From Cyanophora paradoxa CCMP329 (Eukaryota > Plantae > Glaucophyta): a stretch of DNA of 64,000 nt. The DNA is taken from positions 124,001 through 188,000 of the forward strand of contig QPMI01000400.1 in NCBI GenBank assembly GCA_004431415.1. The letters are read 5' to 3'. Both the position numbers and the translations under genes were made by a program. A model generated the notes under the pieces. That model saw nothing but the letters and a program-made list of their open reading frames with translations. It made no database searches and was not told the origin of the DNA. Each line of letters starts with the position of its first letter. The first letter of the stretch is position 1. Shown here piece by piece: positions 3,675 to 64,000 of this stretch.

Positions 3675-5668
3675 ATGGCGACACTGCTGCTCGCGGATCT
3701 CTCGGAGAGCATGAACGAGCCCGTGCTGGGCGAGGACTCTACGCGCGCGGAGCTGGCCCAGCGCGGTGCGAGTCGCCCCCCGCCCGCCGCGGCGGCGCGC
3801 TGATGCCCGTGAAGGCCTGCTGCACTTCCTGCAGTCGAGCGCGCTGCAGCAGGAGCCGGTCGCGTTGATGACGTTTGCGAGCGACACGGAGGTGGCGGTG
3901 CCGTTCTCGCGAGACCTGCGGACGACGAAGGCGAAGCTCTTTGATCTGACGGTCGTGGCGGCCGAGCGGCGCTTCGAGCGCTCCCTCGCGGAGGCCGCCG
4001 CGTACGCGGCCTCCGCGTGGGGCAGCGATGTCGCCGTGCAGGTCGTCGTCATCACCGACTCCCCCGCCGCCCCCGGTGGGCCCCTCCCCGCCCCGCCCCG
4101 CCCCGCCCCCCCGCGGCGCCGGCCGCCGCCGACGCCGCCGGGGTTCAGGGGTGGACGAGACGCTGGCGGGCCTGGCGGGGGCGGACGCGCGGCTGCACTT
4201 CGTGGTGCTGGCGCCGGAGCCGCGGGCGCTGGACGCGCGGGGGTACGCGGAGGTGGCGCAGCGGAGCGGGGCAGCGGGCCGCACGTGGTGGACCTCTCGC
4301 GGGAGGGGCGCGCCCGCGGCGAGCCCGGCCGCCTCGTCAAGCTCGCCTTCGACGCCCTCGCCCGGCCCCTCTGTGCCCTCCCCCGCCCTCCCGCCCCGCC
4401 CCCCGCCCGCCCGACGCGCCCCGCAGACGCCCCTACCGCGGCGAGCTCCGCTTCGGCGACCTCGCAGCCGCCGTCTCCCTCTACCCCGACCCTCCCGCTC
4501 CTTCCCCCGCGCCGCCGTCGCTGAGCTCGTCGGTCCGCGCCCCCCGCACGCCCCGCCCGCCCGCCCCCCGGCGGGCGACGAGCGGGGCGGCGGGCAGGGT
4601 CGCTGGAGGCGCCGACGGAGCTGCCGCGGCGGCTGCGGGTGGCGGGCTTCGTGCCGGCGGCGGAGGCGGCGCTCTGCCCGTGCGTCTCGCGGCACCTCCT
4701 CGGGGAGGCGGCGGGGGCGCCCCCTCGGCGCTCCCCGCGCTGCTGCTCGCGCACCTGCGGGCCGAGCGCGTGGCCGGCCTCGTCGCCCTCCACGCGCCCG
4801 GCCCCCCGCGCCGGACCCCGCCTGGTTCGCCCTCCTCCTGCCTCTCGCCCCCGACAACCCCTCGGGCCCAGCCCGCCCCTGCCCCGGCCCCGTCCAGGCC
4901 GCCCCCGCCACAGGTCCCCGCCCCGCCCCGCTCTCCACGCCCGGCGCTCACGCTCTTGCAGCGCTCGGGTGGTCGTGCTGCCGCCCGGGCTGCGGCCGGT
5001 CTGGTCGCCGGCGCTCGCCCGCGCCATGACGCTCGCCGCCGCGCCGCCCCCTCCGGCCCCGCCCCGCCGTCCCCCACGACCCCGACCTCATCTCCCCTGG
5101 GGGCCCCGCCCGGGGCCCGGGCCCGCCCCCTCCCCCTTCCGCCCCGCATCCCCGCCCCCGGCGCCCCGGGCGGCGGCGCCCCCGCCGCGGCTGGAGCTGG
5201 CGCGGCCGGCGCTGAGCTACGGGGCCAGCGGGGGTACACGTACCCCTCGGCGGCGGCGGAGGCGGTGGCGGCGGACGTGGGGAAGGTCCTCCGCCTCGCC
5301 CGCGGCCTCCCCGGCAAGCGCGACGCCCTCCTCCAGGAGTCCGCCCCGGCCCCCGCCCCGCCCCGCGCCTTCTGCCGCGCCGGCCCCGACGCGCGGCAGG
5401 CTGAAGCGGCTGCGGGAGACGGCGCTCGCGTTCTGCTTCCCCGCGCTGCTCGCGGAGACGGCGCGCCTCCTCGCCGACGAGGCCGCGTGCGCCAGCCGCC
5501 CCCGCCCCGCCCGCCCCGCCGCTCGCCCCCTCAAGGGCCGGCAGGGCGCTGGAGGGGGCGGGGAACCGGGACGGGGCGAAGGTGGCGCGGGAGCACGCGG
5601 AGAGCCTCGCCAACTCGGTCGTCTCCGGCGCCCTCCGCCCCTCCGCCCCCGCCCCGCCCGCCCCCTAG
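3675..5668 (+). CDS. INTS14: Integrator complex subunit 14 (VWA domain), multi-exon
   Basis: MATLLLADLSESM, ALMTFASDTEVAVPFSRD and WGSDVAVQVVVITD match the INTS14 VWA N-terminus. ADVGKVLRLARGLPGK..LKRLRETALAFCF matches its C-terminal block. Stop TAG at 5666-5668. At least one homopolymer indel near 4430. Confidence 0.85.
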
Positions 5669-53200: not shown

Positions 53201-54534
53201 CGGCGGCGAGGGGCGGGACGGCGGAGGCCTCGGGGCGGCGGCGGCGGGGAGGCGCCGCGTTCGAGGAGGAGGCGGGCGGCCTCGAGCTCGCCGCGCTCGA
53301 GCGCGTGCACGAGGGCCGAGCGGTGGGCCCCGTCCCGGTCGTTGATGTTCCCGTTGTACGCTGCGGCGGCGATCAGGCTCGGGCGGCCACGGGGCGCGCG
53401 GGCGGGCGGGGCGCGCGCCGGCGAGGAGGGCCTCGAGGCAGCGGGCGCTGCCGGAGCCGGCGCCGAGCATGAGGCGGTCGTGCCGTCCGCGTCGGTGAGC
53501 GTCGGGTCGGCCCCCGCCTGCAGGAGGACGCCGAGGGTGGAGACGGCCCCCGCGGAGGCAGCGAGGTGCAGCGGGCTCCGCCGCTGGTTCGAGATAGCGT
53601 TCACCGCCGCCCCCGCCCCAGCAGCGCCTGCGCCGCCTCCGCCGCGTCCACGCGCGCTGCCGGCCCCGTCAGCGGCGCGGCGGCGGCAGGAGGGGGGCGG
53701 CGGGCGGGCGGCGCTCACCGGCGGCGTGGAGGGCCGACTCGCCGCTGGCGTCGCGGGCCTCCGGGTTGGCCCGCGCCGCGAGCAATGCCTTGACCGCCTC
53801 CGCGCGCCCCGCGTACGCCGCCAGCATCTGCCCCGCCCCGTCGGCCTCGGATGCGGCGCGGGGGCGGGGGGCGGGGGTGGGGGCGAGTGGCGGCGCACGA
53901 GGGGCGTCTCGCCGCTGGCGTCGGCAGCGTTGGCCATGGCGGGGGCCTGCTGGCAGCAGCGCCGCACGAGCTCCAGCATCTCGGCGTCCTCCGCCGCGTA
54001 GTGAAGGACCGTGCGCCGCGTCGCCTCGTCTGCAGGAGCCGACCGCACGTCTACGCCCCGCTCCAGCAGCTCCGCCACCTCCTCAGCGTCCCCCCGCCGC
54101 GCCGCCTCCAACAGCAGACCCGCGTTTGGCGGCGGTGAGGGCGCCCCCCGCCCCACCGGCGGCGGGCCTGGCGGCGGCGGCGGCCGGAATGAGCCCGTGG
54201 CTCCGGCGGGGGGAGGGCCTGCGGGCGGCGCCGGCTTGAAGCGCGACGCGGTCCCGCCGGATTGGAACTGCGCGCGGAGCGCCTGCACCGAAGTGGCCGA
54301 CGAGTTGAGCGAGTCGAGCTCGCCCCCGCCGACGGGCGCGTAGCCGACGTGCGCCCTCGGCGACAGCGGATCAATGTACGCCTCGCCCTGCGGTTGCATC
54401 GCTGTTCCGATCCCGAAGCTCCTCCGCGGCCCCAGGCCGAAGTCCTGCACGGGCACTCGCGTAGCCCGTTCCGGCGAGGCGTACTGTTGCGTGCCGCCGT
54501 AGCCCGACGAGGCGGACGCGTAGCTCCCCAGCAT
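50204..54534 (-). CDS. Ankyrin-repeat TRP-family cation channel
   Basis: About 12 ankyrin repeats. Pre-S1 LLAHDAVRRLVDRLW; FFAAPRGKF; YFRSPWNLLD; LGPLVQIVGGMFSDVATF; S6 VILLLNLLIAIFTGTY; TRP-box region ending VPPPLNLL. Confidence 0.85.
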
Positions 54535-54817
54535 CTTAGCCCTCAGTCTGAAATTAGTCAGCCGCTAAGCTGGTTGCGCCCTGCAAGGCTGCTAATCAGC
54601 CAGAGCGAGTGAGTGCTCCGCGGTCGCCTTGCCAGGCGCTTGATGTCGTTACCCGAGCTTTAGCTAAGCTGAAGAAACCTCGTCGTGGGGCTGGCGGATG
54701 CCAGGCGGCCGAGAGGCCGTTGCTTTCAAGAAGCCCGGGTAGGGGTTTATTTGAGCCCCAATGGTTTTCCACCTTGTGGCTCGCGTGTGCCGGTCGAGGC
54801 TCCGCTGTTGCAGCTGC

Positions 54818-55269
54818 TAGCATGATCCTGCCGTCGCGGGCCGCGCTGCCTTCGCCGTCGCGTCAACTTTCGGGGTTGAGCCAAGTCGCAGCAGATGCAG
54901 AGCGAGAAAGCACACTGCAGCGCAGTGCGCATCCATTACACGACGCCCGTTCTCTTAAGGTACGCTGCAGATCCCGACTCCATTGAGCTCCCTTCGGCAA
55001 GTCGCCGACAACCTAAGCTTCTCGGCGCGTGAGCCGCCCTGGCATGCAGCCCTGAAGGCACGTCATAAGCTCTCATGTTTGGCGCAGGGAGCTCATTCAG
55101 CCTCGCAAACTGCTCTCGAGCTCCCATATCCTGCCCGAGTCATAGACTCATAGCATGATTTTACCGTGGCAGGCCGGCGCTGCCTTCGCCGTCGCGTCAA
55201 CATTCAGGGTTGAGCCAAGCCACATCAGATGCAGAGCAAGAAAGCACACTGCAGCGCAGTGCACACCCA
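54818..55269 (+). repeat. Diverged ~118-bp direct repeat (54818-54935 and 55151-55269)
   Basis: Shared core gcgctgccttcgccgtcgcgtcaac...aaagcacactgcagcgcagtgc. Confidence 0.9.
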
Positions 55270-55889
55270 CTCCGCAGTGCGCGTCACTCCTCGTTGCCCC
55301 GATCTGAGACTGTCACATGCATGGTTCTGCTTCCGGCAAGGCCAACTTTTGGCAACGCCCAACACTGTCCAGTGACACAATGCTGTTGTGCTCGCCCCAT
55401 ATGTTGAGCTTGACTGCCTGATGTTGCTTGTAACTTGAGAGGCCCAGATCTTGTCACTTTGCAAGGTGCACACCCAGCATTGTGCCTCTTGGCCACTCAC
55501 AAGGGGGAGCAGTTATAGGATACCTCACACCTCGCAGAACAGCCCCTAATGCAAGGGGACTCTCCTGACAAGGGGCGTGCATGGCACGCCAGGACTCCGG
55601 ATCCGAGAACTGATGTGTATATGCACCGCTAGGAGTCCTGGCATGCCATGCACCGCTAGGGACGGGCCACAGTCCCTGTGCCCAGCTGCAGAGAGCAAGA
55701 AGAGAGTATCTATGCAGAGACCCACAGGACCCCTACCATGGAGAACCCCGAATCCTGGATCGACCTGCTCCCTATCAAGCCGCCCCAGATAACACAAGCA
55801 GAAGCAATAGCATGTGCAGTCGCTGTACAGGACAGTGCCCTCGTCATCCATACCATCATGGACGCCATATATCATGCTTCGCTCACCGT

Positions 55890-56012
55890 GGCACATGTAC
55901 ACCAGAGAAGAAGAAGAAGAAGAAGAGTATGTATAAGACACTCCCAAGCCAGCCAAACAGTTATTACGAAAGGCGAAGGACCCAAAGGCCCAAGGCACAT
56001 GTACACCAGAGA
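55890..56012 (-). mobile_element. 85-bp insert with a (TCT)n tail flanked by a 19-bp direct repeat; probable 5'-truncated non-LTR retroposon
   Basis: GGCACATGTACACCAGAGA at 55890-55908 and 55994-56012, with an (AGA)n run abutting the left copy. Confidence 0.5.
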
Positions 56013-56270
56013 GAGAGAGAAGAGTGACCATTCTTTTCAATTATTATAAGAATTATAAGAGAGAGAGATCACGATCAGAAGCAGAAATTATGCAGATGTC
56101 TGCAGTCTTCCCCATATAGGGTTCAACGACCAAGACTTCAGTTTTTCAATTTCCACCTGTACCATTTCCACCGCTATCCCCTTTTTATTTCTTCAGCTCT
56201 ACTAGTCATGAGGAGATCATTCGTTTTTATTCAATCCGTATACCGTAAAACACAATATTATGACAGGCAG

Positions 56271-56462
56271 ATTTATGTCGTTATAAAATCCAAGCCTTCT
56301 CTATGCGAAATATGACGTCCCAAAATTATGTCGGCATGAAATTTTCAGGCTTATATGGGACGGTAAATTTGATTGGGTACCACTGAGCGTCCCCTACTAT
56401 GACGGTCCCAAATTATGTCGTTATCTCACGTCCAAGGTGACATAATCTGGGGATGACATAAT
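56271..56462. repeat. Cluster of (A/T)TTATGTC motifs in both orientations
   Basis: Direct copies near 56272, 56325 and 56412, two of them within gac(g)gtcccaaa(a)ttatgtcg. Inverted GACATAAT copies at 56439 and 56455. Confidence 0.6.
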
Positions 56463-56546
56463 AAAGTACAGAGCCCTTGCTGTAACTCAGCAGATTACTC
56501 ATGAGTCTGCCACACAGGCTCAAGCCCAGTCTTGTGAACCTGCAAA

Positions 56547-57153
56547 TAAGCGCTCTCGTCTTTCGGGTCCCGAGTTTAATGGTTCTTCTGTTGGTATGAC
56601 TGATGCTGCTTTGATGGTTAATACCAGGGTCCAGGGTCCTGTGTGCGGTTCCGCTCACTCCCCACGCTAGTGGGTCCCTGACGGGCCTTGCTCGTTCCAT
56701 TTGGGGCCTCTGCGGCTGTGTCATACCCAGTCTTTTGCTTCATCTCTCTCTCCAGTCTTGCTGGCGTGGATGTGTCTACTGCATTTCTCTCTCTTTCAAA
56801 AGACTGGGTATGACAAAGCCGCAGAGGCCCCGAATGGGACGTGCAAGGCCCGTCAGGGACCCACTAGCGTGGGGAGTGAGTGGAAGCCACGTACAGGACC
56901 CTGGGCCACCACCCCCAGGGCGCCAGCAGAATGAAAAGGCAACCTATGTGGACACCCGACGGCGCCACAGAGGAAGAGCCTGAATCCCCGTGACGGCCCG
57001 CTCCCTGTCGGGCGGCCCGAGGGTATCAGGGTTTGCCCCGGGCAAAGGAAGGACACAAGCTCAAGTGTCACTCAGGATTACTCATTAAAAGCAGCATCGG
57101 CCATACCAACAGAAGAAAAATAAGACTTAGGATCAGAAAGACGAAAACGCTTA
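56547..57153. repeat. Diverged large inverted repeat (arms 56547-56737 and 56797-57153, 59-bp spacer), probably two copies of one element
   Basis: Inner ends TGTCATACCCAGTCTTTTG / CAAAAGACTGGGTATGACA. Shared caaggcccgtcagggacccactagcgtggggagtgag. The left arm lacks ~170 bp present in the right arm. Confidence 0.8.
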
Positions 57154-57689
57154 CTGGGCCTAGGCCTGAGGTCAGTCGAGGGAGGTATGCGGCAGCGTCC
57201 GACAGCGGCATGCGGAGCAAGCGAGGTGAGTCGAGGAAGGAAAACAGCCTCTGATGGCGGCAATGCGGAGCAAGCACACAATACTATGCCGAAGCGCAGG
57301 CAGCAGTTAGCAACGGTGATGGAAAGATCGGCTTGTTAGCGATACAATAGGCTACCGGACGACACAAAGATGCAGAAATGCAATGCGCACTGAAGGAGAG
57401 CAAGCAATGAGCAGCCACGTCTAACACCGACGAAGCGGTTAGCGGGAAAAGGCGCCAGGCGACGGAGTGACGTAGGCATGTCAGAGGGCGCATTTCAGAG
57501 GTGTTGCATCGAAGATGAAGTATACAGCCGCAACGGGCATGCGCAGAGAATGGGCACAACGGCCAGGAGAATGGGCGCGAACGCCGGCGGGACACAGAGC
57601 GCAGCCAGACGACGGGAAATAGAGCACAGAGAACACGAACCGACCGTGAGAAGTTGCGCAGAGCTGCTGGAGGGCGCGGAGGCAGATGC

Positions 57690-57960
57690 ACCCGCGTGGG
57701 GGGGTACTAGTTGAAATCCCTCTCCCCAGGCGCAATCGACAGTGAACCAGCCAGACAAGGGTAGTGGCAGCGCAAATGCCTTAAGGTCCACCATGTATGT
57801 CCCGGTCGTCCAGCGCTCATACATATACATGCAGATACGGGAAGCATCCACAGATATACCAATGCGGGCCTTTTCCTAATCCTGGCCTGGGGGAGTCCTG
57901 GTCACGAAGCACACCACCAACTGATTGAATGTCATGATTACACAAGGAAAATATCGCCTG
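57690..57960 (-). mobile_element. Possible decayed Copia-type RNase H 3' end plus polypurine tract
   Basis: Broken frame GDIFLV*..TFNQLV..F.TRT.PGQD*EKARIGI resembles the Copia GDIxLxYxxTxxQLADxFTKxLP end. GGGGAGAGGGA lies about 130 nt downstream. Needs a frameshift and stops, so the call is weak. Confidence 0.25.
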
Positions 57961-58554
57961 TCCTATATTTTCTGTTTTTTAATTGAATGAGATTTGGTTG
58001 GAAAAGAGTACAAGATATGAAAAGGGAATTGATCACTATTGTCTGTTAGTTGTAAAGGAATATTCTCATCTATTTCTAAATCAATGTCGTTTCTGTAGTC
58101 TTCTTGTAGTTGGTTTTCAATACAAATGCTGCCAGAAAAATGAGTCGTGCTTGAAGCGGATACTGCACTTGAGTCTGACTGTGTTGAAAATGTGAGCAAA
58201 GCACTACAAAGAAATTGCATATGAAAATCGAAGATGTACCATTTCCTCAAAGGCTGGTAAACGTGTCTTGAAGTCATTTATACGAATTACGATTGCTGTT
58301 AGAAGCATTTTCGTTTGAGGTTGACAAGTGAATTTAATCTCGAGAATATTCTTGCAATGTAACACAGTTGATCTGATCCAGACAGAATGAAGCACCTACG
58401 TCAGATAAATATTTGTCAAATGCAAACAAATGTATGAAACAATATTACATACTGGATTTGAGGGGAAGAGAATGCTGTTTTTCTCAAGCTGTACATCATA
58501 ATCAATGAACATTGAATCTGTAGAAAATTAATCAGATTGTTTTTGGATATGTAT

Positions 58555-58863
58555 TGTTGCGTGCAGTGTGAGGACCCGGGATGATTCGGGGAATCACTAG
58601 CCTCTCGCGAGATGGCCTATTGGTAGAACTGCCGCCTTGACACCCCTTAGTCGTTGGTTCGACTCTGGCTGGGTCCGGGTCGCAACGCGTCCATAACATG
58701 GGGGCTGCTGCGGCCCCCATGTTATGGACGCGTTGCGACCCGGACCCAGCCGGAGTCGAACCAACGACTAAGGGGTGTCAAGGCGGCAGTTCTACCAATA
58801 GGCCATCTCGCGAGAGGCTAGTGATTCCCCGAATCATCCCGGGTCCTCACACTGCACGCAACA
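58555..58863. mobile_element. 309-bp palindromic element: two inverted 144-bp LTR-like units with TGTTG...CAACA ends and a 4-bp TSD (GTAT)
   Basis: Arms pair around a single central base at 58709 with only 2 mismatches. GTAT at 58551-58554 and 58864-58867. Removing the element plus one TSD leaves a normal 58-nt intron. Confidence 0.9.
58613..58666 (+). promoter_or_regulatory. tRNA-derived Pol III internal promoter (A box + B box); mirror copy at 58752-58805 on the - strand
   Basis: A box TGGCCTATTGG at 58613-58623 and B box GGTTCGACTC(T/C) at 58656-58666, at tRNA-like spacing. T-arm intact, anticodon stem broken. Confidence 0.65.
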
Positions 58864-59674
58864 GTATTTAAAAAATAACGATCATTACCAATAAAATTAT
58901 CTGTTTCGAAAATTGTGTCTTGATCATGATGACTGACTGTTTTGACAGTAGATATTGCCCTGTTGCGCTGTTGTTGTTTTAGTAAACTAACAGATGCTCA
59001 ATCGGTTTTATTTTGCAATTACTGAAGAAATAATTTTTACACTTACATACAACATTGGCCAGAGGGCTGCTGCATGTTGATAATGCTCTTGTGCAAATTG
59101 CTTTTCAACCTGGGCGGCATCCTTTGGAATAATAACTGCATCTGCAAAAGGTAATGAGGTATGTAATTCCATTGAAAATCTTGAATCGAATTTATTTGTT
59201 TATAATCACCTTTCTTTGATGGTAGCTGCTGAGATTTACCGGGTTTGGCTTGAATATGACAGATAAAAGGATCAAATGCGCAAAGGTACACTGCATTGTC
59301 CTTTTTAACAATTTCGTTTTTTCCGTTCATAATAACAAGGGCCAGTCTGCATAAAGTAAATTAGTTTAATTAAGACTGGACATGATCCATGCAAACCAAT
59401 ACCTGTGTAACCCTTCCTTTTCAGGAACTCTTAGTCGTACAGGAACGGGTGGGATAGGTTTTCTCTGCAGCAGCTGTTGGAGAGTAGTTCTCTCAAGCCT
59501 TGCGAAAATTTTCTTGTTAGAAATAACCGCAGGTCGATTTTTGTAGTTGGTCACTAAATCACCTTCCCAAATAATCAGAACAAAAATCATTGGAAAACTA
59601 TAATACGTACTGCCATCGAAAGAAGGACCCTCCACACTATTATGGTTGATGTAGTGAAAATCCTGGTGGCGCTT

Positions 59675-59869
59675 GAATGTGTTGATGTAGTATATTCAAT
59701 GAATTCGCACACACCGAGACAATACGGCTAATGATAGAACTGAGGTGTCCGTAAAGTGTCAAGTCGAAAGATGAGCCTACTGGTTACGCCGGGTAGGGAA
59801 CCTAACAGCCATCGGACAGGGTGGAGCTAGTCAAGGAGACGTAAACTAAAGCAAGAATGTGTTGATGTA
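59675..59869. mobile_element. 165-bp insertion (59690-59854) flanked by a 15-bp target-site duplication; probable SINE or truncated LINE
   Basis: GAATGTGTTGATGTA at 59675-59689 and 59855-59869. Removal restores the frame AKQYINTF-KRHQDF of the host exon. Confidence 0.8.
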
Positions 59870-61228
59870 TTGTTTTGCTTGCTGGGGTTCGATTGTGACC
59901 CGTTGCAGCACAAAGACCACATTTAATTCAGGGTTGTCAATTGTCAGCTGAATTAATTGTTGGAGTGCTATGTCGTCTCCGGGGGTGATCTGAGATGGAG
60001 TACAAATCATGATGAATCGGTGCTTTATGACTGAAACAACCTCACCAATACTGAATTCAGTTTGTTCGCAAAGAGACTAGTAATGCATAATCCACGATTT
60101 TTTAGGAAATCTATTTTATATTTGGCCCTTGGAAGATTCCGATCTTGTACGTCTGGATCTGCTTCTTCGAAAAAGATGTGAAGTGGTAAATTTGTTGAGT
60201 GCTGCTTGGCTTGGCTCATTTGTGCGTCCAGCTGTAGAATAAACGAGTAGTAAATCAGCCAATATCATCAGACAAGCAGTAAGTGGTACTGACGGAAAGA
60301 AGCTCATGAACAGATGCATGATGGCATGATTCAACTTGAATCTGATTGTTTGGTGTTGGATGCACAATAATTTATCACAAACCACACATTTGACTCACGC
60401 GTTCCAACGACATATTCAGCAGCTACTGGATTCTAGGCCTACTCGGCAATATGCTGCAGAATGGGCTGTCAGGTGTGTGTGGAGATCTGTCTAGAAAGCA
60501 CGCACAGGGTGTGCACTTTTATAAAGCTAACGATGCCGTGCAAGTTGCCAAGTTGCAGAACGCTCTTGAAGAGTGTCCTGAAGGGCCCACAAGGTGCTTT
60601 TTTGATGCAGTTTGCCACAGGCCTGCTGTGAGTAAGAGAGATAAGAGATAGAGCGATTTCGTTCAGTCAGGAGCAAGGAGATGCCAGCAGATAAAGCACC
60701 TGCACAGTTCTAAATACAGTTGCCACTTGCCTGCACGTTCACAGTCCACAGTGCAATGTTACCACACTGCAGAACGTGTGCTAGCAGAGAGACACAAACG
60801 AAATCATTCAATTAGCAACATGAAGATGCCAGGAGAAGTGCACCTGTCGAATGTCACAGCGTTTGCCTCGTCAACGTCGGATGCAGTCGACGTTGGCACA
60901 CACGTCAGCCTGGAATCACTGTTCTGGCGATCGTCGGTGCGCAGAATCGATGATATTATGATTGAATACCTTCGATTGCGATGTCGCTGATGTTGCAGCA
61001 CACACCTGAGGCGAGCTGGGGAAGTTGGCGTCCTCGCCCTGGACAACGCGCGGATTGCTGATAAACGTCGTGCACGATGGATGCTGATGCTGCGTAGCTG
61101 TGCGGAAGAAGCGGGGGAGCGGCGGGTGGCGACTGTGCTTTCTTGGCTCGTCTGGGGTACAACGAACCAAAACACCGGGGTACGCAAAGCCCAAAGAAAG
61201 GAGCCCGCCGGCGCATGGGCTGCTGCAA

Positions 61229-64000
61229 ATGAAGCGCGGAATACGAGATGCGGCGAGACTGCCGCTCGCGATGCTGGTGCTCGCGGCGGCGGGTCTCGTC
61301 GCGGCGGCGCCGGGACCCGCGCCGGAGAGCCCCTGCCCCGCCGGCTTTGGCGGCCGCTCCTGCAACGTGTGCATGAAAGATACCGCGTGCCCCAGCAGCA
61401 CTGTGTGCGCTCACGGCATCTACTTCTTCAACGAGATGTGCGTCCATCGCCCGCTGCCGCCCATCTGCTCTGACACCGAGTTTCTCATAACGCGCAGGCA
61501 CGTCGGCTGCGATGCCGGTGTGGCCCTTTCGCGCCCTGGCGTTCAACGGCGCCGTTTGAAAGGCGCACGCTGATCCTTCGGCGCAGGGAGGGACCTGCGC
61601 GTCATCGGCGGTACGGATCTGACGCTCTCTTGCGACCGCTCCACTCGCACCTGCGGGTATCAGGGCGCGCTGCTTGCTGGTGTAGCGCTCCCGCCATCTT
61701 TGCGCTGACGCCGGGCGCCAGTGTTCAGCGCTTCCGAGCGGATCTATCACTGCGGACTCTCAGGATGCAACTTCACCTCTGTTGCCGACCAGCGCACGTC
61801 GACGGTCGTCGAAGCGGAGTGCGCGAACACCATGTGCACCTGCGACGGCAACTGCGGCTTTCTCCGCGTCTTCAGTGCGTCCTTGCGACCAGCCGCGCTG
61901 CTCGGCTAATGCTTATCGTGCTGCGCAGTGAAGTATGCGTCCGACCCGACTCACATCTCCTGCGACCGATCAACCTCCGTCTGCCGCATTCAACGTGCGC
62001 CAAACAAGCTTTCCTTGCGAGGCTTTCGCTTACTGATCCGCATGCAGAAAGCCAAATGTGTGACCGTGCCCGTTTGTGTTTGTGTGTCCGGCGCGTTGCT
62101 GACTTGCGCGCAGGCCCTTCAAGCCCGTCGTGACGTGTACGTTGGCGGGCACCTGCGTCGACCCGGTCGCAGCCATGGGCATCGTCGATCTCGTGCAGGT
62201 ACTCGTGTCCGCCGCCCGATCGGTGGCAGCCCTCCGCCTCACGCGCTGTGCAGGAAGAGCAGCAGGGCTCCGGAGGCATGACGAGCAAGACGCGCTCCAT
62301 CATCGTAGTCTGCTGCGTCGTCGGCGGCGCCATCACGGCCACCGCCGCTGCCTACTTTTGCACCAGCCGCGGCGTCCTGGAGCAGCGCGGTGCGCTGCCT
62401 GCCCTGCCCCGCCCCGCCCGTCGCGCGCGCCTCACACTTGACTCAGACGGCCTCACCCCGCGGCGACCTCCCGGCGTATCGCTTCAGTTTCAGGCCATTT
62501 CCGTCTCGGACTACGTGGAGCCCCAAACGCTCTGGACGCGCGCCTCGAACTGGGTCCGCCCCTCCGCCAGCCTCTCGTCCCCCTGCGCGAGGCGAGGGGC
62601 CGGCCAGGTGTCAGGTCGCGAGCCGGCGATGCGCGAGGTGCTGGACGGCGTCTTCGGCGAGTGCCCCAAGGGCTTCCTCATGGCCATCATGGGCGACGCG
62701 GGTGCGGCCCGTCCCCCGCGCGCGCCGCTGCCCCGCCCGACGGGCGAGGGGCGCAGGCGCGGAGGCGTCTCGGGCGCGGGTGCTGATGGACGTGCTGAGC
62801 GGGCGGAAGAGCACGGGGCGGGTGGAGGGCCAGGTCCTCGTCGACGGCGAGCCGGCCAACGGCGAACTCCTCTCCGCCATCTCGGGGTCCGTTCCCGTCC
62901 CGTCCCGCCCCGCCCCGCCCCGCCCCCGCGCGGCCGGCCTGACTCCCCGCTGCAGATACGTGACGCAGGCGCAGGAGGACCTCAACCCGCTGCTGACCGT
63001 CCGCGAGACGCTCACCTTCTCCGCCATGCTCAAGCTGCCTCGCGACATGGACAAGGGTGCGCGCCGCCGCCGCCACGCGTATGCACGCGCTGACGGGACG
63101 GCGGGGGCAGTGCTGAAGGTGAACCGGGTGGAGGACACGCTGAAGGAGCTGCAGCTGGTGTCGGTGGCGGAGAGCCGGGTGGGGCGGGGCCACGAGGACG
63201 GGGGCATCGGGGGCGCCGACCGCCGCCGCCTCTCCATCGGCAACGAGCTCGTCACGCAGCCGGCGATCCTCTTCCTCGAGGAGGCACGCCCGCCTGCCCG
63301 CCCACCCGTCGCCCGCCGCCGCGCTGGGCGACCGATGCTGAGCCGCGGGGCGCAGCCGACGGCGGGGCTGGACTCGCAGAGCGCGCACAGCGTCGTGCGG
63401 ACGCTGCAGTCGCTGTGCAAGCGGCACTCGACGACGATCCTCTTCACGATGCAGCAGCCGCGGACGAACATGCTGCGGGCGCTGGACCGGCTCCTCCTCC
63501 TCTGCCGCGGGCGCTCGATCTACAGCGGCCCGACGACGGAGCTGGCGCGGCACTTCGAGCTGCTGGGGCGCCCCCTGCCGCCGGGCCAGGAGCTCCCCGA
63601 GTACCTCCTCGACATGGTCGGCAACCTCACCAACGAGGAGCTCCGCAAGCTCGTCGCCTCCGCCATGCCCTTCCCCGTCCGCATCGACACCGCCGGGCCC
63701 GCCCCGGCCCCGGCCCCCGGCGCCCCCGCCCCCGCCGGCGCCTCCTCCCCCGCCGGTGCAGCGGTGGCGCTCCCGGCGGGGCCGGTGCCCTCGCCGGCGG
63801 CGGCGAGCCTGCGGGGGGACCGGACGCTGCTGCTGGAGCCCGAGCAGCGGCGCTCCAAGCTGACCTCCTCGGGGGTCTTCTACACCACCGACGGCTCCAT
63901 CAAGAAGCCCGCGCGCTCCCTCCCCGGTGCGCCGCCCCGCCCGCCCGCCCGACGCCGGCGGCCGGGAGCGAGCGAGCGGGCGGGGGCGGGGGCGGCAGGG
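61229..64000 (+). CDS. ADP1-like ABCG protein: signal peptide, EGF/Cys-rich ectodomain, TM helix and degenerate NBD (runs off the right edge)
   Basis: CPAGFGGRSCNVCMKDTAC; TM IIVVCCVVGGAITATAAAYF; LMDVLSGRKSTGRVEGQVLVDG; LTVRETLTFSAMLKLP; RRRLSIGNELV; PTAGLDS. Confidence 0.85.

Follow-up and report, generated by a model that had tools for sequence, protein, structure and literature searches.

TRIMs that carry tRNA-type A and B boxes in their LTRs have been described as Helenus (TRIMp3) and, according to the available text of that study, occur in fungi, animals, and Selaginella (Kojima 2024, PMC10886601). Animal Helenus families show 4-bp duplications, are tied to Gypsy, and have primer sites in common with Gypsy; one bivalve family uses tRNA-Pro, with a primer site beginning TGGGGGCT, and many families match their tRNA over only ~10–11 letters (PMC10886601). 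Pol III transcription is unproven for Helenus itself (PMC10886601). Several other systems are also relevant to the locus described here. In Ty1 and Ty3, the first plus-strand strong-stop DNA carries a copy of the primer tRNA, which amounts to 12 letters in Ty3; this DNA is displaced and is a dead end that accumulates in Ty3 particles, while the tRNA does not supply the primer-binding site of the genomic copy (PMC5371799). Pairs of inverted retroelements that share a single target duplication are known from maize, where the Zma-SMART inverted dimer consists of two TRIMs (Gao 2016, PMC4717578), and from Drosophila, where inverted LTR-element tandems arise by double insertion (PMC5932611). Finally, Ginger1 and Ginger2 have TGTNR ends, inverted repeats of 40–270 bp, and 4-bp duplications, and the inverted repeats of Ginger1 have been proposed to derive from two LTRs in opposite orientation (Bao 2010, PMC2836005).

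The palindrome analysed here lies in a window of 64,000 nucleotides (the whole stretch of DNA examined) from the glaucophyte Cyanophora paradoxa, whose genome is described in the consulted part of the literature as haploid and ~100 Mb in size, with short introns, 1.77% LTRs, and 11.5% unknown repeats (PMC6704402). Each of its arms resembles the strong-stop DNA of Ty1 and Ty3 in joining a putative LTR to a putatively copied tRNA tail. In contrast to that DNA, which is unintegrated and carries 12 tRNA letters, the palindrome consists of two joined inverted copies with a target duplication, and 14–15 letters are read as tRNA (PMC5371799). It likewise holds two inverted retroelement copies within one target duplication, as in maize and Drosophila; however, two whole elements are present there, whereas here each side has only an LTR and a tail, and no target motif is found at the junction (PMC4717578, PMC5932611). 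The terminal sequences, repeat length, and duplication are shared with Ginger, but the palindrome has no transposase, and its unit is also a one-way module with a putative primer-binding site. Its single insertion site, T-GTAT-T, matches neither CCGG/CCGT, the target of Ginger1, nor RTATAY, that of Ginger2 (PMC2836005). The Cassandra and Ajax TRIMs also have a Pol III promoter inside the LTR, but it is of 5S origin and their LTRs are direct (PMC10886601).

Among open-licence papers, we found no prior description of a layout with inverted LTRs and a tRNA tail, or of a glaucophyte TRIM. The available portions of Kojima 2024 contain neither "inverted" nor "palindrom" in the text, and no mention of "Cyanophora" in the supplement (PMC10886601). 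An earlier note on this DNA knew of no described element with this exact layout; within this literature, that holds for the inverted layout, to which the host lineage can be added as new, but not for the tRNA-derived LTRs, a type of unit already described as Helenus.

Layout of the palindrome and its insertion site

By sequence inspection, the near-perfect palindrome is 309 bp long and consists of a 144-bp unit (58555–58698, plus strand), a 21-bp centre (58699–58719), and an inverted copy of the unit (58720–58863, minus strand). Both units have TGTTG..TAACA ends and turn their 5' (U3) ends outward. The palindrome exceeds every other inverted repeat in the window in length, is predicted by RNA folding to form one stem, and has no Pfam match. 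It is bordered by GTAT on the left (58551–58554) and on the right (58864–58867), a target site duplication whose four letters would match by chance with a frequency of ~0.006 at the local composition; the empty insertion site would read T-GTAT-T. This is the layout given in the earlier note. The arms are near-identical, and the count of two mismatches between them was also correct, although their placement can be refined: one lies in the units (58666 T / 58752 G), and the centre contains the other (58706 T / 58712 G) together with an unpaired T at 58709. At 58666, the left unit has T, whereas the right arm and the contigs of two sequencing runs (X15 and X16) have C. This position is in a CpG, and the mismatch is likely a later mutation.

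We aligned short-read contigs from four runs with the window (X1 and X11, DNA; X15 and X16, RNA by guess only). At least half of the words of 57900–60900 are present in 20 of the 24 sequencing runs listed. In both DNA runs, the outer junctions between flank and unit are found on both sides inside contigs of single-copy depth (X1: 84 and 87; X11: 70 and 76), with no break at the insertion point. Because the junctions and the GTAT duplication recur in these contigs, the inverted arrangement and the duplication are independent of the assembly of the window. The 21-bp centre, in contrast, is spanned by none of the contig pieces listed in any of the four runs, and its sequence rests on the window's own assembly. 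The earlier concern that the palindrome could be a fold-back artefact of assembly is thus answered for the outer junctions and the duplication but not for the centre. No contig of X15 or X16 covers the centre, an absence that has no bearing on expression.

The palindrome is inserted in an intron on the minus strand (58518–58888), as the earlier note had recognized. The intron measures 371 nt, or 58 nt without the insert, has GT-AG ends, and separates an upstream exon (58889–58967, minus strand) from a downstream exon (58451–58517, minus strand); contigs of X15 and X16 join 58517 to 58889. The distance from the insert to the 5' splice site is 21 nt, and that to the 3' splice site is 33 nt. The same contigs also join two adjacent introns with CT..AC ends on the forward strand. 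Whether the 371-nt form is removed by splicing cannot be read from them, because an empty 58-nt intron yields the same product and the cultures may lack the insert.

The host transcript, which occupies 58204–59172 on the minus strand, is AT-rich and spliced, with an open frame of ~150 codons and at least three short introns, whereas the surrounding genes are GC-rich. A search with its first coding exon gave no homologue, and no significant Pfam match was obtained; a homologue search with a DMAP1-like stretch also gave no match. The region is part of a low-GC island (54001–62000, 41–62% vs 68–83% elsewhere) located between a gene that we take to be ankyrin-like and an ABC-transporter gene (61229–63931), which matches EukProt tig00020537_g10275.t1 at 100% over the exon searched; this identifier has the style of published Cyanophora paradoxa gene names (PMC6704402). 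A Pfam scan of 38 nearby ORFs, out of 122 listed, returned three weak matches (E 0.04–0.05, below the cut-off) and no retroelement or transposase domain. Two further repeats were observed in the island. A second, nested inverted repeat at 56547–57153 has inner arms at 56649–56737 and 56797–56885 (89 nt, 94% alike, 59-nt loop) and outer arms at 56547–56612 and 57088–57153 (66 nt, 82%), and it may be an older fold-back element or a hairpin RNA locus. A direct repeat of 113 nt is found at 54838–54950 and 55172–55284, with copies 85% alike and 334 nt apart.

The repeated unit and its parent family

Following the box definitions used for Helenus (A box TRGCY..YGG, B box GGTTC; PMC10886601), the left unit carries an A box at 58613–58623 and a B box at 58656–58666, both on the plus strand and 43 nt apart; the last base of this B box is the arm mismatch described above. 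The right unit carries the corresponding B box at 58752–58762 and A box at 58795–58805 on the minus strand. The boxes of both units point inward, as had been stated earlier. Among 20,000 dinucleotide shuffles of the unit, one contained such a pair, and the whole window has two, one in each arm. The palindrome contains no run of four T or four A, again as claimed; the nearest T4 is at 58940 on the plus strand and at 58527 on the minus strand. A functional tRNA in the unit was considered and rejected, with 0 ARAGORN calls at the default threshold and only implausible ones when the threshold was relaxed. A single 144-bp unit folds no better than its shuffles. The Rfam matches were dismissed as shape matches, being limited to a generic hairpin (miRNA) below the curated scores, with no tRNA family among them.

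The unit is repeated elsewhere in the genome. In X1, two short contigs inside the unit have depths of 4,414–4,624, compared with 84–87 in the flanks, a ratio of ~52–54-fold; this ~50-fold excess is a rough figure and not a copy number. The 5' end of the unit (58555/58863) meets other flanks in other copies in all four runs. At the opposite end, four long contigs of single-copy depth in X1 and X11 begin exactly at 58720, the inner end of the unit, and loose contig ends at the same position are found in X11 and X16. Because contigs start and stop there, the inner TAACA marks a genuine end of the unit, as it does in 3' or solo LTRs, and the 3' ends of the unit in other copies indeed meet unique flanks. 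Other contigs, in X1 and X15, follow TAACA and the next 11 letters and diverge after 58709 into one common other sequence. AACGG are the first letters of this continuation, which also contains a second B-box-like motif. The unit, the tail, and this internal sequence together give the anatomy of a 5' LTR, a primer-binding site, and an internal part. From depth in X1, the copies bearing the tail number at most ~32 against ~54 unit ends, a rough bound in which the centre and the internal sequence are not separable.

The internal sequence just past the primer-binding site starts with a motif, seen in X1 and X15, that resembles a B box and the 3' half of a tRNA, perhaps of the tRNA-Asp/Glu type. 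Variant units were also observed, some with a different 5' start (X1, X11, X15), some with an 11-letter insertion (X1, X11), and one in an X15 contig with 173 letters replacing 58; these variants suggest subfamilies. A 19-letter pattern of the unit end had 0 matches in either viral or metagenome contigs.

These properties agree with those of Helenus in several respects. The unit is a short TG..CA sequence of LTR type that contains tRNA-type A and B boxes but no functional tRNA, a putative primer-binding site follows it directly (here compared with tRNA-Pro genes of other organisms), and the GTAT duplication seen at this copy is within the 4- or 5-bp size of Helenus duplications (PMC10886601). 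The TG..CA ends act as element boundaries in other copies of the unit. Several fungal Helenus LTRs likewise begin with TGTTG and end with AACA, and some have an internal B-box-like motif (PMC10886601). We consider it likely that the 144-bp unit is the LTR of a Helenus-like, tRNA-Pro-primed mini-retrotransposon. Judged from sequence, the parent family is likely to work in the way of Helenus, as a putative two-LTR TRIM with a predicted Pol III promoter. The earlier reading of LTR, primer-binding site, and Pol III promoter is thereby supported at the level of sequence: the unit is multi-copy, its inner end is a terminus, and its tail matches tRNA-Pro 3' ends. In the contigs seen, the parent family shows neither a polypurine tract nor a second direct LTR, and no autonomous partner was observed. 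One X16 contig extends 330 letters beyond 58709 with no joint back to the LTR start in that distance, and no contig joins the internal sequence to a second LTR. There is no polypurine tract beside the palindromic copy. In a Helenus element, two direct LTRs enclose an internal part and a polypurine tract, whereas the LTR units of the palindrome are inverted and enclose neither (PMC10886601). Since its units are inverted rather than direct, we do not file the palindromic copy as a Helenus element.

The centre and its match to tRNA-Pro

The first 15 letters of the centre (58699–58713, plus strand) form a tail complementary to tRNA-Pro 3' ends of other organisms, and letters 1–11 are the putative primer-binding site of the family. 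After letter 11, the tail diverges from the family's own sequence. We scanned a metagenome collection for genes whose acceptor stem matches the first 11 tail letters, with the next four letters left free. At least 126 loci were found, 120 of which carry a tRNA-Pro call among the matches listed. The comparison with tRNA 3' ends proposed earlier thus had a positive outcome, shown against the tRNA-Pro genes of other organisms and not those of the host. The collection holds many tRNA-Pro genes that have this acceptor stem; their anticodons are AGG, CGG, and TGG, and their T stems occur in several variants.

The four letters left free are informative to different degrees. All first 15 centre letters are matched exactly by 14 of 128 matches, or 6 of 59 distinct genes, among those listed, and these 14 come from low-GC loci unlike this host. 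The commonest variant (89 of the 125 tRNA-length matches listed) differs from the centre at letter 12. The family's genomic continuation, on the other hand, is given by 0 of the 125 tRNA-length matches listed. Three of the four free letters are also predicted by symmetry alone. Perfect symmetry would require A at letter 14, whereas the centre has G, as do 54 of the 55 distinct tRNA-length genes among the matches listed; the base that breaks the symmetry is therefore the one that a copy of tRNA-Pro would carry. The preference for a tRNA copy over a perfect palindrome consequently rests on this one base. We regard it as likely that the tail was copied from the primer tRNA.

The pairing of a 15-letter tail with itself was also considered. 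Among the registers with a Watson–Crick-paired 3' end, the one that gives the 21-bp centre is the most stable (−6.6 kcal/mol; nine positions with six standard and two G–T pairs). The best self-dimer of the tail (−7.8) is, however, in another register, and the hairpin needed for self-priming is not favoured by single-strand folding. The argument from registers is partly circular, because three of the four free letters also follow from symmetry.

Origin of the palindrome and its significance

We propose that the palindrome is dead-end plus-strand strong-stop DNA that primed itself through its tRNA-copied tail and was inserted by a Gypsy-type integrase, and we consider this somewhat more probable than all the other origins taken together. 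The parent family would be a TRIM with two LTRs that relies on Pol III for transcription and on a Gypsy element for mobilisation. Plus-strand strong-stop DNA, consisting of the LTR and the tRNA copy, would be displaced as in Ty1 and Ty3, and its 3' tail would pair with a second tail or with itself, letter 15 on letter 7. Extension from the paired tail would copy the LTR again, leave the 21-bp centre as the fold-back junction, and produce a linear duplex with two U3 ends, which integrase could take by both TG..CA ends and insert in one piece with a 4-bp duplication. Some observations fit this proposal less well, namely the 15 letters compared with 12 in Ty3, the weak pairing, and the low-GC origin of the exact tRNA matches. 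The earlier note had left two options, a fold-back family and a snap-back product of a TRIM. The second fits better, because beyond the tail the other copies lead into internal sequence and do not turn back.

A different and rather unlikely origin is an ordinary TRIM insertion that was rearranged later, either by a double insertion in opposite orientations followed by loss of the middle or by a replication template switch that copied the 5' LTR back over the remainder of the element, with a later point mutation making the centre asymmetric. The pairs of inverted elements in maize and Drosophila are precedents for such events, the TGTT/AACA common to both unit ends offers four letters of microhomology, and the CpG mismatch between the arms, which looks like a later mutation, indicates that mutations do occur here. 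However, the break would have to coincide with the end of the primer-binding site, where the family's genomic sequence gives no pairing, and the extra mutation would have to strike the exact base that makes the centre a natural tRNA-Pro complement.

It is still less probable that the palindrome belongs to a mobile MITE-like family, with LTRs recruited as its inverted ends and a Gypsy integrase or a Ginger-type transposase as the mover. Its TGTNR ends, its repeat length of 144–154 bp, and its 4-bp duplication are within the Ginger ranges (PMC2836005); the near-identical arms imply that the copy is young, and the unit is multi-copy. Short-read sequencing has been suggested to under-read hairpin centres (PMC5932611, in the part consulted), so that absence from contigs proves little. 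The listed longest pieces of X1 and X11 include no centre-spanning piece of ~63 letters, a weak hint against such a family. The behaviour of the other copies, which stop at the inner TAACA or run into internal sequence, is not needed by terminal inverted repeats. The target sequence also fits neither Ginger pattern, and no transposase-like ORF is found among the 38 nearby ORFs scanned.

Long palindromes are hard to assemble. With the centre unspanned in the four runs, a longer inverted structure between real outer junctions, for instance a tail-to-tail pair of whole TRIMs, could have collapsed during assembly, but we regard this as very improbable, since a tRNA-Pro-complementary centre that is absent from the family's own sequence is not expected from a collapse and both junctions and the duplication match the window in X1 and X11.

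If the palindrome is integrated strong-stop DNA, as we prefer, it would be at the end of its own retrotransposition, because it has no polypurine tract and no internal region. It could still act as a source of RNA. Cyanophora paradoxa encodes homologues of Dicer, Argonaute, and RdRP, according to the consulted part of the source (PMC3700990). Transcribed as part of the intron, the palindrome would fold into a stem of ~150 bp and bring the splice sites approximately as close together as in the empty intron, while Pol III transcription of either arm would yield an RNA with a stem of ~100 bp. The hairpin of ~150 bp predicted in the earlier note would therefore be expected from the intron transcript and not from convergent Pol III transcription. 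Either RNA could feed small RNAs matching all copies of the family. A more far-reaching possibility is that strong-stop dimers are made and integrated repeatedly, so that inverted-repeat elements form in one step from the ends of an LTR retroelement and hairpin RNA silences the parent family in a glaucophyte. We consider this unlikely; if true, it would be a live transition from LTR to TIR of the kind proposed for Ginger.

The palindrome is likely a single copy, and it is a candidate with a putative function only, which limits the weight that it can carry. Within that limit, the locus would extend TRIMs with tRNA-type promoters to the glaucophytes. It would also be a genomic fossil of a dead-end by-product of reverse transcription, with sequence of the primer tRNA kept in its junction. 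The combination of an LTR, a tRNA complement, and an inverted LTR within one duplication gives a signature that can be searched for in any genome. The proposed origin would show concretely how LTRs can become inverted-repeat ends, and it predicts a way in which a retroelement family may seed hairpin small RNAs of its own.
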